A stretch of DNA of 64,000 nucleotides from Gammaproteobacteria bacterium (GTDB lineage: Bacteria > Pseudomonadota > Gammaproteobacteria > Eutrophobiales > Eutrophobiaceae). Below the pieces are notes generated by a model. It was not told where the DNA came from, did not search any database, and saw only the letters and a program-made list of their open reading frames with translations. Location: positions 2,848,001 through 2,912,000 of the forward strand of contig OZ220696.1 of assembly GCA_965116495.1 (NCBI GenBank), written 5' to 3'. The position numbers and the translations under genes were made by a program. This document shows, piece by piece, positions 2,407-53,027 of the stretch (position 1 is the first letter of the stretch; every line of letters starts with the position of its first letter).

Positions 2407-3671
2407 GATCGCCCTGCCAGACGCATGCGGCTTACCACCCTGTCGTCCTTGAGTTCTGCGTTTTCCACTTCCGGTTTCAGTCCGGTAGCAGACAGTTGCT
2501 CTTGCAGCGCTTCCAACGCCTCAAAGTCCGGCAGGCTCAAATCCAGGACCAGTTGTCGCCCGTCGAAGTTGAATGCCGTGAGACCTGCACCGGCGCCGTT
2601 GCCCAGCAGCGGCGCCAGCCGTTCCAACCAGAACAGGATATCAATACCCTGTTCCCGCCCACCGGTGACCGGCCTGGCTGCGGCATTCAGCCATTGTTCC
2701 ATCTGGTGGCGCGGGTTGACCAGGCGCCTGGCGTCGGGGAAAGCCTGCCGGTAGGCAGTTTCGATAGCGGTTGTCAGGCGCTCATGCTGTGCCTGTATGC
2801 GGGAATACTCAACAAACCACTGCGCGGTCAATACCAGGACCAGGGCCGCAGCCAGGCCCGCGGACGGAATGAGCCGGCGTGACTGCAGTGACCTGTCCCG
2901 GCCCGGTTGGTACTTTCCCGCCAGCATATTAACCTGCTCCGGCGGAGCGGGCTGCCGCGCCAGGCAGGCGGGACGGGACAGGTCCGCCTGCGTCCGCGCC
3001 AGGTCAATGCCACGCTCGGCCAGCCAGTCCAGCCAGTTCCCCACCAGTTCGTACTGTTCCCGGTCGCGCACCCGCACTTCCAGCCTGGCGGGGGGCTGCC
3101 GGGAATGTTCCAGGGCAAGCTGCAATCCGGCGGGAGGTTGCGCTCCAACATCCTCATCCAGCGCGGCGCCGCCGGCTGCCGCGGGAAACCGCAGCAATAA
3201 CGGCTTTTCCAGGGCATCCAGGAACCAGGCGCCGGGCGCGGGCTCCAGCAACAGCAGGTACTCCGGCGTCAACAGGTCGAGACGCAGGCCGCGCGCCTGT
3301 GCGGCAGCGGTCCACGCCATCATCTGTTCGTGTTCCACCACTGCGACCGGAGTCCCGTCCTTGCCGGCAGGTCTTGTCAGCGGCACAAAATGGTATGTCT
3401 CCGGCGTCCGGAACAACCTGTCCTCAAGCGCAAAAGGCAAGGCGGCAAAAAAACGTTTCCGGTGACGCGTCGGAATGCTGACCGAATGTATGCGCACCCG
3501 GACGCCGGGCGCACAGAGCAGTATGCGCGCGCCCGGCGGGGCCGGCAGGGACTCCCAGTCAGGACATTCCCCTTCCTGTAACGGAACGTCCTCCCCGCGC
3601 CCGCGCCTGGCATAATACAGGCCCTGCCGGCGCAACTGGACCCACCAGTAGTCATTGCGCTCATCCGTCAT
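2403..3671 (-). CDS. gspL: T2SS protein GspL
   Basis: ALPFALEDRL, vNML.G.Y, FPDARRLVNPRHQM, DFEALEAL motifs; one TM helix. Confidence 0.92.
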   Translation of the reverse strand: MTDERNDYWWVQLRRQGLYYARRGRGEDVPLQEGECPDWESLPAPPGARILLCAPGVRVRIHSVSIPTRHRKRFFAALPFALEDRLFRTPETYHFVPLTRPAGKDGTPVAVVEHEQMMAWTAAAQARGLRLDLLTPEYLLLLEPAPGAWFLDALEKPLLLRFPAAAGGAALDEDVGAQPPAGLQLALEHSRQPPARLEVRVRDREQYELVGNWLDWLAERGIDLARTQADLSRPACLARQPAPPEQVNMLAGKYQPGRDRSLQSRRLIPSAGLAAALVLVLTAQWFVEYSRIQAQHERLTTAIETAYRQAFPDARRLVNPRHQMEQWLNAAARPVTGGREQGIDILFWLERLAPLLGNGAGAGLTAFNFDGRQLVLDLSLPDFEALEALQEQLSATGLKPEVENAELKDDRVVSRMRLAGRS

Positions 3672-3890
3672 TCCCGCGTCTCCTTCTCGTCATTCCCGCA
3701 TCCCCCCCTCGTCCCGCGTCCCCCCTCGTCATTCCCGCGCAGGCGGGATTCCTGTGGAAAAACTGTCCCGAAGGGACACCTTATAAGGTGTCGCAAGCGA
3801 CAATCTAACAGACTGGATTCCCGCTTGCGCGGGAATGACGAGGGGAAGGCCGGGCAGACCCGGGGAGACCCGGGGGCGGTAATGACGAGG
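3667..3890. repeat. Cluster of GTCATTCCCGC-N-GCGGGAATC(CAG) (dRS3/REP-like) palindromes and half copies with an internal multi-hairpin insert
   Basis: GTCATTCCCGC at 3667, 3689, 3728; inverted CTGGATTCCCGCTTGCGCGGGAATGACG at 3813-3840; hairpins at 3764-3802. Confidence 0.85.
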
Positions 3891-3899
3891 GATAAGAGA

Positions 3900-4910
3900 C
3901 TAATCATACTCGCGCCAGTGACCCCGCACCGAGACGCCGTCCCCTGCACGCTTGTAAAGCGTTGCCGTGCGCCGCCGGGCATTGCCGGTCTCTACCAGGG
4001 TGTGGGCGAGAAAGAACTCAGTCTTGACGTCAAGCAACTGCTTCAGAGTTTCACAATTGGGTGTCAGCTGCTCCATTTTACAATAATTTTGGATATCCTT
4101 TTGTGATTTGAACGGTTCCTGTCTGGCTTTCCCCCTCAACTGCTCGGCTTTTATCAATGCCTGCGCTTGCGCCAGCTCGAGGCTGGTGAGGACTGCCGCC
4201 AGCACCTCCCGGCTGGCCGTATTGATATTGATCTTCTTCACATCCGGCGGCAGCGCGCTGACGTACGGTCTTAACTTGTACCATACCTTCCTGCCCACGC
4301 CGCGCACCAGGCGCAGTTCTGCGGGGTCATTCAAGGGCTTGTTGGCGGCAACGTAAGGCGGATTCATACCCAGGTAGTAACCATCTTCAGCGCCCCAGGG
4401 GCCGTAGACGTCACCACCTGTATCCATCCAGTCAACAATCGCTTCGGCTATGCCCGGATTCAGTTCCAGGATACGCAGCAGTTGTTCGAGCGTTTTCCTG
4501 GCTTGCGCGTTGACCCTGTTCTCTTGCACCAGGTTATTCAGGTTGATGCGCGCCTGCATGTCTTCCATGCCTTCCCCATAGCCCCGTACAAAGCCGCGAC
4601 CGACCGGCAACGGCGGCGGGGGCTGCGCCCATGTATCCTGGAAGCTGTCGTAAGCACGATCATCCTCGTCCAGGATAAGGCCCGCCCAGTCCTGAACCGC
4701 GCGCACGGCCAGCGCAGACTGCAGGAAATCCGCCCCGTTCCCCACCTGGCGTATCCAGACCTGGTTGGAAAAACTCAGGCGTCCGACTATCGCCGTTGAT
4801 ACTGCCAGGACCAGCAGTACCGTGACCAGCGCCACCCCGCGCGCGCCGGGGGGGGCGGGGACGGACTTGAAGTCCGTCCCCGGGGTCGGCGCGCCCCCCC
4901 TCACTGGCAA
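3900..4910 (-). CDS. gspK: T2SS minor pseudopilin GspK
   Basis: RG|VALVTVLLVLAV, D.WA, EDMQARINLNNL, AIVDWMD, ELRLVRG, ININTAS motifs. Start probably TTG 4910, GTG 4904 or MITE-supplied ATG 4940; the extension to 5207 only reads through the MITE. Confidence 0.92.
   Translation of the reverse strand: MPVRGGAPTPGTDFKSVPAPPGARGVALVTVLLVLAVSTAIVGRLSFSNQVWIRQVGNGADFLQSALAVRAVQDWAGLILDEDDRAYDSFQDTWAQPPPPLPVGRGFVRGYGEGMEDMQARINLNNLVQENRVNAQARKTLEQLLRILELNPGIAEAIVDWMDTGGDVYGPWGAEDGYYLGMNPPYVAANKPLNDPAELRLVRGVGRKVWYKLRPYVSALPPDVKKININTASREVLAAVLTSLELAQAQALIKAEQLRGKARQEPFKSQKDIQNYCKMEQLTPNCETLKQLLDVKTEFFLAHTLVETGNARRRTATLYKRAGDGVSVRGHWREYD
4856..4882. repeat. GGGGAC(A/G)G-family short palindrome inside the gspK leader (encodes GTDFKSVP)
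   Basis: Perfect palindrome CGGGGACGGACTT-G-AAGTCCGTCCCCG. Confidence 0.85.
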
Positions 4911-4912
4911 AC

Positions 4913-5179
4913 TAGTACTCTTTCCAGGTGATATTGACATGTTCAGCGGGTCGGGAAGCGGTTGAGCGCCAGGCGCGCCGTGCAGGTAATGGCGCGCCCT
5001 TGCCAAGCGGCGCAACACCGCGGGCGACCGCTTCCCGACCCGCCCGCAGGGAGCCAAGCAGCGGCGCCAATACAGCGTTGCAGTCCTTGACAACGACTCG
5101 CCATTCTCTGCGGACTGCGCCTTGTCTTGGCGCCGCTGCTTGGCTCTGAACATGTCAATATCACCTGGAAAGAGTACTA
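4913..5179. mobile_element. MITE: 263 bp between TA dinucleotides, 34-bp perfect terminal inverted repeats including the TA
   Basis: TAGTACTCTTTCCAGGTGATATTGACATGTTCAG (4913-4946) is the exact reverse complement of 5146-5179; internal stems 4946-4962/5027-5043 (17 bp) and 5051-5070/5127-5146 (20 bp). Confidence 0.9.
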
Positions 5180-6013
5180 ACGTGGGTGTCCAACATGGAA
5201 CAACCACCTGTAAGCGCCTGCGTCTTCCAGTTCTATGGTCAGCTCCACCGCGCGGGGAAGAGCTTCGTCGTTACCAGCGAGTCCCTGCGACTCGCGAGGC
5301 GTCCCCAGCGCGAAGGGAAGATCTTGCGTTCCTCCGATATTCGTCGATGGCGGCCAGCGCGCCAGCCATAAGCCGGCGTCCGCCAGGTAGCGCAGACGGA
5401 TATCCCCGATACCTTCCAGAAGCAGGTTGTCCCGGGACAGCATTCCATACGGCCGGTCGAGTCGCGCCCAGGTCCGGCGGTAAAGCCCGCCATCGTCAAG
5501 GCGGTAGCCGACGCGCAGGAACGGGCTGGCCGGCCCCGCGTGAAAATCGGCATTCACGCTCCGGGTAAACTCCAGCACGTTCTCATAAGCCGCGGAATTA
5601 CCATATTCATGACCGTTAAAGGGCTGGCCGGCGCCGCCCGGCGCCCGGTCCACAGCCTGTTCGAAGTCGGCATGAACCAGGTTGAAGACCGTCTCCAGCC
5701 GCTGCCAGAAACGTCTTTGCTCCTGCAACCGGTCCTGCACAACCAGCCCCTGGCTCAACGCCCCGTACGCGGCGGCGGCCACCAGTGAGAAAATCGCCAT
5801 GGCAACGACCAGTTCCAGCAGGGTCAATCCCGCGTAGCGACCCCTGGCTCGCGGGGACAGGCTTAAGCAGGCCCCCGCATGTTGTAAGCGCGGGTCCGTC
5901 CCCCGTAAGCAGGGTCCCCTTACAAGGAATGTGCGTTCACCGGACTCTGGTCCCCGCTTACGGCGTGCGGGGACAGGCCTGCACGGGAGCGGTACTACGG
6001 GCAACAGTGACAT
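5177..6013 (-). CDS. gspJ: T2SS minor pseudopilin GspJ (unusually long leader)
   Basis: G|LTLLELVVAMAIF, DFEQAVDR, LEFTR, LRVGYRL, WPP, LPRAVELTIE motifs; nearest in-frame ATG upstream of the cleavage site is 6013. Confidence 0.92.
   Translation of the reverse strand: MSLLPVVPLPCRPVPARRKRGPESGERTFLVRGPCLRGTDPRLQHAGACLSLSPRARGRYAGLTLLELVVAMAIFSLVAAAAYGALSQGLVVQDRLQEQRRFWQRLETVFNLVHADFEQAVDRAPGGAGQPFNGHEYGNSAAYENVLEFTRSVNADFHAGPASPFLRVGYRLDDGGLYRRTWARLDRPYGMLSRDNLLLEGIGDIRLRYLADAGLWLARWPPSTNIGGTQDLPFALGTPRESQGLAGNDEALPRAVELTIELEDAGAYRWLFHVGHPR
5853..5903. repeat. Composite GGGGACAG palindrome with nested 28-nt hairpin, in frame in the gspJ leader
   Basis: GGGGACAGGCTTAA[GCAGGCCCCCGCATGTTGTAAGCGCGGG]TCCGTCCCC; 44/52 identical to 52976-53027 by manual alignment. 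Confidence 0.85.
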
Positions 6014-6024
6014 GATTGCAACCC

Positions 6025-6071
6025 GAAAAAATAATCTGCGTTCATCTGCGTCATCTGCGGAAAAAAATAAT
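6025..6071. repeat. ATCTGCG triplet repeat flanked by GAAAAAATAAT-like direct repeats
   Basis: ATCTGCG-TTC-ATCTGCG-TC-ATCTGCGG at 6034-6060 between dnaA and gspJ. Confidence 0.6.
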
Positions 6072-6101
6072 ACCCCCGACTGATGTTCCACCAGGCTGAT
6101 G

Positions 6102-7418
6102 CTACATAGTCAGGATACTAAGCAGGTTCTTGTAGTCTTCCTCGACCCTGTTGTCATTTTGCCGTAATTCCGCGACCTTTCTGTGGGCATGCAATACAGT
6201 AGTGTGATCGCGTCCGCCGAACGCGTCTCCTATCTCGGGAAGGCTGTGGTTGGTCAATTCTTTCGCCAGGGCCATGGCTACCTGCCTGGGACGCGCAATG
6301 GACCGGCTTCTCCGTTTTGACAGCAGGTCCGCAACCTTGATTTTGTAATACCCGGCGATAACCTTCTGAATGTTCTCCAGGGTAACCTGGCGTTCCTGCA
6401 ACAGTAACAAATCCCGTAGCGCCAGCTGGCAGAATTCGATATCGATGGGCTGTCCGGTCAGGTTGGCGTTGGCGATGACCCGGTTCAGGGCGCCTTCCAG
6501 TTCGCGCACGTTCGAAATGAAGCGTTTGGCAATAAAAAAAGCCACGTTGTCCGGAAGATCAATTCCTGCGTTTTCCGCCTTGGACTTGACAATGGCAACA
6601 CGGGTCTCGTATTCCGGCGGTTCTATGGCAACGGTCAACCCGCTGCTGAAGCGCGACCTGAGCCGGTCCTCGATGCCGTCAACCTCCTTCGGGTAGCGGT
6701 CGCAGGTCAGGACCACCTGGTTTTCCCCTTCCAGCAGAGTATTGAACGTATAGAAAAACTCCTCCTGCGACCTGTCCTTACCGGCAAAAAACTGTATGTC
6801 ATCAATAAGCAACACATCCAGTGTGCGGTAATTTCGTTTGAACTCGTCAATGGTATTGTGGCGCAGCGCTTTCACCATGTCGGCAACAAACCGTTCCGAG
6901 TGCAGGTAGGCAACGTTCATGTTCGACCGGCCTTCAAGAATGGAGTTGCCTATGGCGTGCATCAAGTGGGTTTTGCCAAGGCCGACGCCACCACACATGA
7001 ATAAGGGATTGTACGCCGTACCGGGATTTTCCGCGACCTGTATGGCCGCAGCCCGGGCGAGTTGATTCGACTTTCCTTCCACGAATGAGGAAAACCGGTA
7101 ACTCCGGTTAAGGTTCTCCGGCAGATAATTGCGATTGAATACCGGTTCCTGTGTGCGCTGCCGCCGCCCTGCGCCCGTCTTCTGGCTGCCGACTTCAAGA
7201 GACAGGCTCAGCTTTGCGCCTTGTTCCTGTGAACGCAGTAATTCCTCGATGCGCTGCAGGTATTTTTCACTGACCCAATCCAGGACAAACCGGTTCGGTG
7301 CGAGCAATCGCACTCCGGCCTTGCCCTCTATGGCCTGCAACGGACGAATCCAGGTATTGAACTGTTCTGGAGGCAACTCTCCCGCAAGTCGTTCCAGGCA
7401 TGTTTTCCAGGCTGACAT
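6102..7418 (-). CDS. dnaA: Chromosomal replication initiator DnaA
   Basis: [18 protein letters not shown], Walker [38 protein letters not shown]. Confidence 0.99.
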
Positions 7419-52975: not shown

Positions 52976-53027
52976 GGGGACAGATTTCAAGCATGCCCCC
53001 GCATGTTGTAGGCGGGGGCCTGTCCCC
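52976..53027. repeat. Composite GGGGACAG palindrome with nested 28-nt hairpin
   Basis: GGGGACAGATTTCAA[GCATGCCCCCGCATGTTGTAGGCGGGGG]CCTGTCCCC. Confidence 0.85.

Follow-up and report, generated by a model that had tools for sequence, protein, structure and literature searches.

Palindromic repeats in the predicted prepilin leader of GspJ in a gammaproteobacterium: a tolerant site for a known kind of selfish DNA

That palindromes can lie in frame within proteins has already been published, and the case described here extends what is known of Rickettsia palindromic elements (RPEs) and intragenic REPs rather than overturning it. TIR repeats, as presented in the main part of the paper by Di Nocera et al. 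(2013, PMC3733652), are short palindromes with GGGGWSAS ends that also form dimers and clusters and are tied to IS200/IS605-type tyrosine transposase genes (TIRYT/TIRtron elements); the same part of that paper places REPs also within ORFs, at N- or C-termini and in presumed linkers, and considers that terminal and linker insertions may be neutral and that N-terminal ones may be misannotated. RPEs, in the portion of PMC10969869 drawn on here, are about 105–150 bp long, nearly half of them in ORFs, and occur in frame in unrelated genes that include housekeeping enzymes. Delihas (2011, PMC3184786), in the portion of text considered, describes BRE of Bordetella, BOX and REP2 as being either fused internally or lengthening the 5′ or 3′ ends of genes. 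As to the kind of leader involved, the class III signal peptides of type 4 pilins are described in the relevant portion of PMC10191384 as hydrophilic, variable in length and ending in Gly, with Glu at +5 and a hydrophobic stretch; according to the same portion and that of PMC6497953, processing depends on Gly-1 and leader length is variable, the pilin leaders of S. sanguinis, for instance, having 8–18 residues (PMC6497953).

The window (the whole stretch of DNA analysed, 64,000 nucleotides) contains the genes of a type II secretion cluster, arranged as two blocks that face each other: gspG-H-I on the forward strand and gspJ-K-L-M on the reverse strand, the latter directly behind dnaA; the secretin gene adjoins the cluster just before the window, and one gene for a prepilin peptidase lies at another place in the genome. 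The gene following dnaA is thus gspJ and not dnaN, which is found some 70 kb off on the other strand (genome positions 2925461–2927517), next to what are, judging by their translations, recF and gyrB (dnaN-recF-gyrB). Among related genomes of the genus, gspJ lies behind a different gene in G005, and in G006 the dnaA ahead of gspJ looks internally deleted. GspJ itself matches TIGR01711 (83 bits against a cut-off of 65) as well as PF11612 and PF07963, and its N-terminus has the pattern of a class III signal peptide (Gly or Ala at -1, Glu at +5, a hydrophobic stretch and a hydrophilic leader). Its 62 predicted leader residues nevertheless far exceed the 8–18 given for S. sanguinis in the portion of PMC6497953 considered, and are more than in 135 of the 142 prepilin leaders of the genus, those 135 having at most 29.

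With the +1 codon at 5827 (TTG) and the Gly-1 codon at 5828–5830, a frame scan agreed with the earlier note that ATG 6013 and TTG 6004 are the sole in-frame ATG, GTG or TTG codons from 6013 to Gly-1, and that the stretch open ahead of Gly-1 amounts to 59–62 codons, depending on the start chosen. Further upstream there is an in-frame GTG at 6091, which would give 88 codons; in a relative (G016) a 9-base deletion creates a TAA right before the ATG and so shuts this frame, and given that the site is also highly structured, GTG 6091 is regarded as an unlikely start. The predicted leader has 12 Lys/Arg and 3 Asp/Glu residues and lacks a hydrophobic segment (maximum 19-residue hydropathy 0.21). It had been described as built largely from palindromic repeats, of which the repeat content stood and the word “largely” proved generous: 55 of 186 nt fall under the BLAST mask, and about 80 of 186 if a degenerate module at 5952–5980 is added, so that the repeat-derived share is 30–43%. 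The hairpin noted at 5950–5974 is indeed there, the profile score of the degenerate module (10 bits in a search space of 310 nt) being weak on a genome-wide scale. Special RNA structure was rejected for the leader region, which as a whole folds no better than shuffled sequences (z = -0.52). In the mature protein, G000 (the present genome), G005 and G016 have some 20 extra residues near the C-terminus (window 5260–5330) relative to other genus members, and this segment did not match the repeat mask.

Table 1 Coordinates, within the window, of the features discussed in the text.
Feature	Position	Strand	Remarks
gspK	3900..4940	-	23–35-residue leader; family match
25-bp short form of the GGGGAC family	4857..4881		within GspK leader
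MITE-like element, ~270 bp, terminal inverted repeats, 15 copies	4911..5179		inserted at gspJ stop
gspJ	5177..6013	-	probable start ATG 6013 through stop; 278 aa
Gly-1 codon plus +1 codon	5825..5830	-	+1 TTG here; ATG in most relatives; ACG in one X12 contig
Predicted GspJ prepilin leader, 62 residues, last Gly-1	5828..6013	-	translation inferred
51-bp long form of the GGGGAC(A/G)G...C(T/C)GTCCCC palindrome	5853..5903		24-bp short hairpin with 27-bp inner module
Hairpin, likely degenerate second copy of inner module (3/21 mismatches)	5950..5980		profile E = 6.6e-5, weak score
Different dispersed repeat, CGCAGAT type	6026..6068		between dnaA and gspJ, upstream of ATG 6013
dnaA	6102..7418	-	directly upstream of gspJ
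52-bp intergenic copy, long form	52976..53027		BLAST and pattern match

The 51-bp element in the leader is a genuine dispersed repeat, with 35 other BLAST matches (E ≤ 0.1), about 22 of them near full length, and its sister copy at 52976 is, as had been stated, intergenic and 52 bp long. From the multiple-of-three length of the coding copy the earlier note had drawn special significance, which it does not have: 51 bp is the commonest length of the long form, intergenic copies included (10 of 22 regex matches, against 5 of 22 at 52 bp), and 8 of the 9 51-mers other than that in gspJ lie outside called genes. For the short form the corresponding figures are 24 bp in 39 and 25 bp in 34 of 79 pattern matches, so that a multiple of three is the default for both forms and was rejected as a sign of selection. 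Both forms are, moreover, open in most reading frames. Exact-pattern matches to the GGGGAC palindrome occur in 17 of 23 genus genomes (44 of them here, 0–1 with a backward control), and the repeat load of this genome comes to about 1,400 intervals or 1.7% of its length. At the orthologous gspJ site the short hairpin is present in G018 and the long form in G000 and G005, the difference being 27 nt; at the gspK site the two states are reversed between G018 and G000. A separate repeat family in this genome is of CGTC type, and a cluster of CGTC-type hairpins lies between gspK and gspL (window 3666–3848), with the predicted gspL ATG, at 3671, inside one of them.

Set beside the TIR repeats as described in the part of PMC3733652 considered, the GGGGAC family likewise consists of palindromes with GGGGWSAS ends, found also inside ORFs: the terminal motif takes the form GGGGACAG at the 5853 end, as it does in many copies, a variant end, GGGGACGG, is one position off, and the family is palindromic, dispersed and moderately abundant, as are the TIR repeats of TIRYT elements. 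Its ends, GGGGAC/GTCCCC, place the 51-bp family outside the GTAG/CGTC REP superfamilies. One of 21 Y1_Tnp loci in the genus is flanked by it, namely L364 in G016, the genome richest in GGGGAC copies (153), where two repeat copies lie just past the transposase stop codon and one about 500 bp upstream; the sole intact Y1 transposase found in the present genome is flanked by the sister GGGGTCAG family and not by the GGGGAC family, and both transposases, at 72 bits, are under the NCBIfam RAYT cut-off of 80. Judging from the GGGGWSAS ends and the flanking of such a gene in a relative, it is likely that the GGGGAC repeat would be mobilised by a tyrosine transposase of RAYT/TIRYT type. Neither a prepilin or signal-peptide case nor the switch between 24 and 51 bp by way of a 27-bp module is mentioned in the part of PMC3733652 considered, its target-ORF supplement apart. 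The likeness to RPEs, which were compared by description, is that these repeats too are dispersed palindromes in frame in unrelated conserved proteins (ArgRS, UDG, MMPL and DUF3604, relative to their G006 orthologues); the elements here differ in being 24–52 bp long and in having 125 of 1144 repeat midpoints within called genes, the other 1019 being outside.

GspJ is not the only pseudopilin concerned. Next to it, insertion of the MITE-like element disrupted the ancestral start of gspK, and one end of the element now gives this gene an in-frame ATG, the element ends carrying outward-reading ATG codons; the corresponding empty site is seen in run X6 and in G015, and a second minor-pilin gene (genome 2287932–2288930) likewise gets its ATG from the end of a MITE-like element. 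REP2 similarly supplies an ATG in the portion of PMC3184786 considered, which contains no case of a cleaved leader. In G005 the entire GspK leader derives from the ~270-bp element. Where the ancestral GspK ATG remains in frame it gives leaders of 18 (G006 and G008), 28 (G015) and 37 (G018) residues; in the last of these the leader bears repeats and the +1 codon is GTC, so that a +1 start is impossible. The same is true of GspI in G010, where a 62-residue leader containing a CGTC-type hairpin has a single canonical start and the +1 codon is TTT. In G000, by way of observation, the sole in-frame start of gspI is a GTG three codons ahead of the cleavage site (window 1523). Some apparent candidates were set aside: an insert in GspH of G010 is found in just its 2 local copies in 23 genomes and so reflects local duplication rather than a mobile repeat, while the 127-residue GspG leader of G017 is a tandem array of no clear dispersed family and was not counted. 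This last locus (L089) has a predicted leader of 127–142 residues whose tandem motif resembles its own cleavage site, and a second cluster of G017 (L095) has a predicted 77-residue leader, also of tandem repeats. The sequences thus support the view that hydrophilic, basic, repeat-bearing leaders recur among predicted pseudopilins of the genus, with Gly-1 kept and in some cases with no possible start at +1.

As to where translation of GspJ begins, it is on balance probable that ATG 6013 (or TTG 6004) is used and that prepilin peptidase would cut the resulting basic leader of 59–62 residues after Gly-1, though it must be remembered that a rather different account can be given, according to which the repeats form an untranslated 5′ region, the open frame is due to chance, and GspJ starts at the +1 codon as a leaderless pseudopilin. 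This account draws on the SD-like site before the +1 TTG (-6.0 kcal/mol at a spacing of 11), which is stronger than those of 78% of confident starts and stronger than that of ATG 6013 (-3.2 kcal/mol, spacing 4), as well as on the occurrence of ATG or TTG as the +1 codon in 9 of 10 GspJ orthologues in the genus; however, G017 has GCA at +1, one X12 contig with the same long leader has ACG there, an ATG at +1 also occurs in the genus behind ordinary leaders of 6–10 residues, and the region of the +1 TTG folds at -17.3 kcal/mol, beyond 99% of 501 confident starts (the figure for ATG 6013 being -8.9). A dicodon model also places the start at 5827, but the same is expected for repeat-derived codons under either reading. 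The 5′ region is certainly changeable, with a rearrangement in G005 and a deletion of 170 nt in L284, and ATG 6013 is not ancestral, since it is missing from G018, G005 and L284; in L284 the loss, not a multiple of three, took ATG 6013 with it, and in-frame starts remain at 8, 16 and 19 codons. In G010 a repeat insertion of about 90 bp has left the ATG coupled to gspI in another frame than gspJ, so that the frame with an old start has not always been retained. An in-frame start precedes any stop at 52% of random intergenic positions, which would favour chance for a single gene, but it does so in all five upstream contexts of repeat-bearing gspJ (G000 type, G005, L284, G018 and G010), for which the joint chance is about 0.04 at 0.52 each. 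The warning in the part of PMC3733652 considered, that most N-terminal REPs may be extragenic, also bears on the case; on the other side, the paralogous long leaders of G010 GspI and G018 GspK have +1 codons unable to start, prepilin topology is set by the leader (PMC10191384, in the portion considered), and Gly-1 is kept in 10 of 10 GspJ orthologues whether the leader is long or short, its codons including GGA, GGC, GGT and GGG. Among the best-supported differences listed for 8 runs, 7 of which cover the leader fully, none is a stop or indel within it. Taken together, this makes a leaderless GspJ rather unlikely. The dN/dS of the leader itself was discarded as a test, being uninformative at 3–7 differences per pair, and the literature searched for cleavage of a 60-residue prepilin leader yielded no such paper. 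One of the runs (X11, labelled as a sponge metagenome) contains 5700–6200 in one contig with 17 differences, suggesting a sponge-associated organism.

It might alternatively be supposed that gspJ-K-L-M, having come to lie behind dnaA through rearrangement, is poorly translated or decaying, relaxed selection allowing repeats to build up at 5′ ends. In favour of this, the cluster has been divided and in part inverted, dnaN lying some 70 kb off; the MITE broke the ancestral gspK start; GspJ reaches orthologue-level scores in just 10 of 23 genus genomes; and dN/dS of mature GspJ within the clade is 0.35–0.96, albeit over few sites. Yet over the first 66 mature codons the same ratio is 0.2 against G018, every gsp frame in the window is intact with family hits, and the dnaA-gspJ junction is old, occurring in G018 and, as a remnant, in G006, so that decay is very improbable indeed. 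Scarcely better placed, and still highly unlikely, is the strong form of the original proposal, that in-frame repeats have in cleavable leaders a niche that is specific and close to exclusive, with 3n copies selected. The survey made used in-house gene calls (3658 genes, of which 1221 were paired with orthologues in the 2.4 of 3.5 Mb of G006 that were covered) and assigned signal-peptide classes heuristically. A repeat counted as N-terminal if it came after the last usable start but ahead of the conserved region or signal; genes lacking a usable start (69) and the unclassified cases (6 of 137) were excluded. On this rule prepilin genes had such repeats in 3 of 9, Sec or lipoprotein genes in 2 of 167, genes for membrane-anchored proteins in 2 of 126 and those for cytoplasmic proteins in 4 of 681. 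The predicted enrichment in leaders is therefore seen for prepilins (3/9 against 8/974 other N-termini, p = 8.5e-5) and not for Sec/lipoprotein signals (2/167 against 6/807 uncleaved, p = 0.63), and it falls to 1/7 (p = 0.063) for prepilins when the discovery genes GspJ and GspK are removed. The repeat library of this genome finds matches in 13 of 142 prepilin leaders of the genus, a count from which 3 of 145 with no start were dropped and which would miss repeats private to other genomes; 10 of the 13 are GspJ or GspK from five close kin, and in the repeat-rich G006 none of 17 prepilin leaders has four or more library hits. Repeats also occur in the signal regions of LptD, of ApbE and of an efflux lipoprotein of the outer membrane, the LptD and lipoprotein cases having been found by eye and missed by the counting rule.

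The claim that coding copies are confined to disposable peptides failed outright, internal and C-terminal copies outnumbering those in leaders. Repeats lie well within genes as 24 intervals in 18 genes, of which two are likely chance (A315 and A1615, rejected as having no alignment gap) and most were assessed without an orthologue check; C-terminal tails carry them in 34 of 1191 orthologues, with 18 intervals (17 genes) at least 75% inside the frame. The mature proteins affected, named from their G006 orthologues, include ArgRS, uracil-DNA glycosylase, MMPL, DUF3604 and a flavoprotein linker, and the linker insert of uracil-DNA glycosylase belongs to the same long repeat family as that in the GspJ leader. 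In ArgRS (genome 3712421–3714406, forward strand) the N-terminal domain is some 50 residues longer, the added stretch containing a short hairpin repeat of that family, and in LptD (genome 3614037–3616742, reverse strand) a single open frame before the signal peptide takes in four different repeat families. On inspection most of the N-terminal “core” hits from the orthologue comparison turned out to be 5′ UTR, and a count of internal insertions in G006, swamped by a repetitive surface protein, was discarded. It may be added that the GspJ element sits 8 codons from the cleavage site, showing that the cut site is not targeted. Against the rate in intergenic DNA, the roughly 380 nt of prepilin leader contain four repeat events where 0.66 would be expected, or 1 against 0.48 without the discovery genes, so that prepilin leaders in this genome look about as permissive as intergenic DNA, and more cannot be claimed. 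In short, the GspJ leader is a place where a known kind of selfish DNA is tolerated, not an exclusive niche.

How this tolerance would arise can be sketched. Small hairpins and MITEs probably insert with low specificity, selection removing most coding hits, and repeats would then persist where sequence is weakly constrained, whether between genes or, within them, in N-terminal leaders, linkers between domains and C-terminal tails. Of coding sites, prepilin leaders probably rank with the most tolerant, since all that is required of them is to be hydrophilic, cytoplasmic and Gly-ended, and since GC-rich hairpins encode Arg/Gly/Pro-rich peptides that fit; a prepilin leader remains in the cytoplasm, is variable in length and must simply have Gly or Ala as its last residue (PMC10191384; PMC6497953), so that such an insert would be cut away and could be nearly neutral. 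The 5′ region of gspJ was probably assembled stepwise, a short hairpin common to G018 having gained the 27-bp module, and its start codon was probably re-recruited more than once after rearrangements. Where an insertion broke the old frame, a new start is probably drawn from the element itself, as the MITE-end ATG of gspK and the second minor-pilin gene illustrates.

A broader reading can be put forward tentatively, as one that may well prove wrong: that prepilin leaders act as intergenic-like landing pads within essential genes, where tyrosine-transposase hairpins and MITEs insert, lengthen or shorten by means of an always-in-frame 27-bp module and donate starts, prepilin peptidase erasing the footprint in the protein and leaders of 60 to more than 100 residues being tolerated. 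The literature searched for repeats in prepilin leaders, judged largely by title and with the supplements of PMC3733652 outside its scope, gave no report of them. Should this reading be general across phyla, such leaders would constitute an undescribed and predictable refuge for selfish repeats, and if it is true PilD would be almost without a limit on leader length. The matter also concerns annotation, since starts of this kind will be put at +1, or the gene missed, by gene callers and pilin predictors. In any case the loci allow the permissible length and arbitrariness of a prepilin leader to be tested on natural examples, and supply a ready comparative series, of 18, 28 and 37 residues on one GspK start and from 10 to 62 residues in GspJ.
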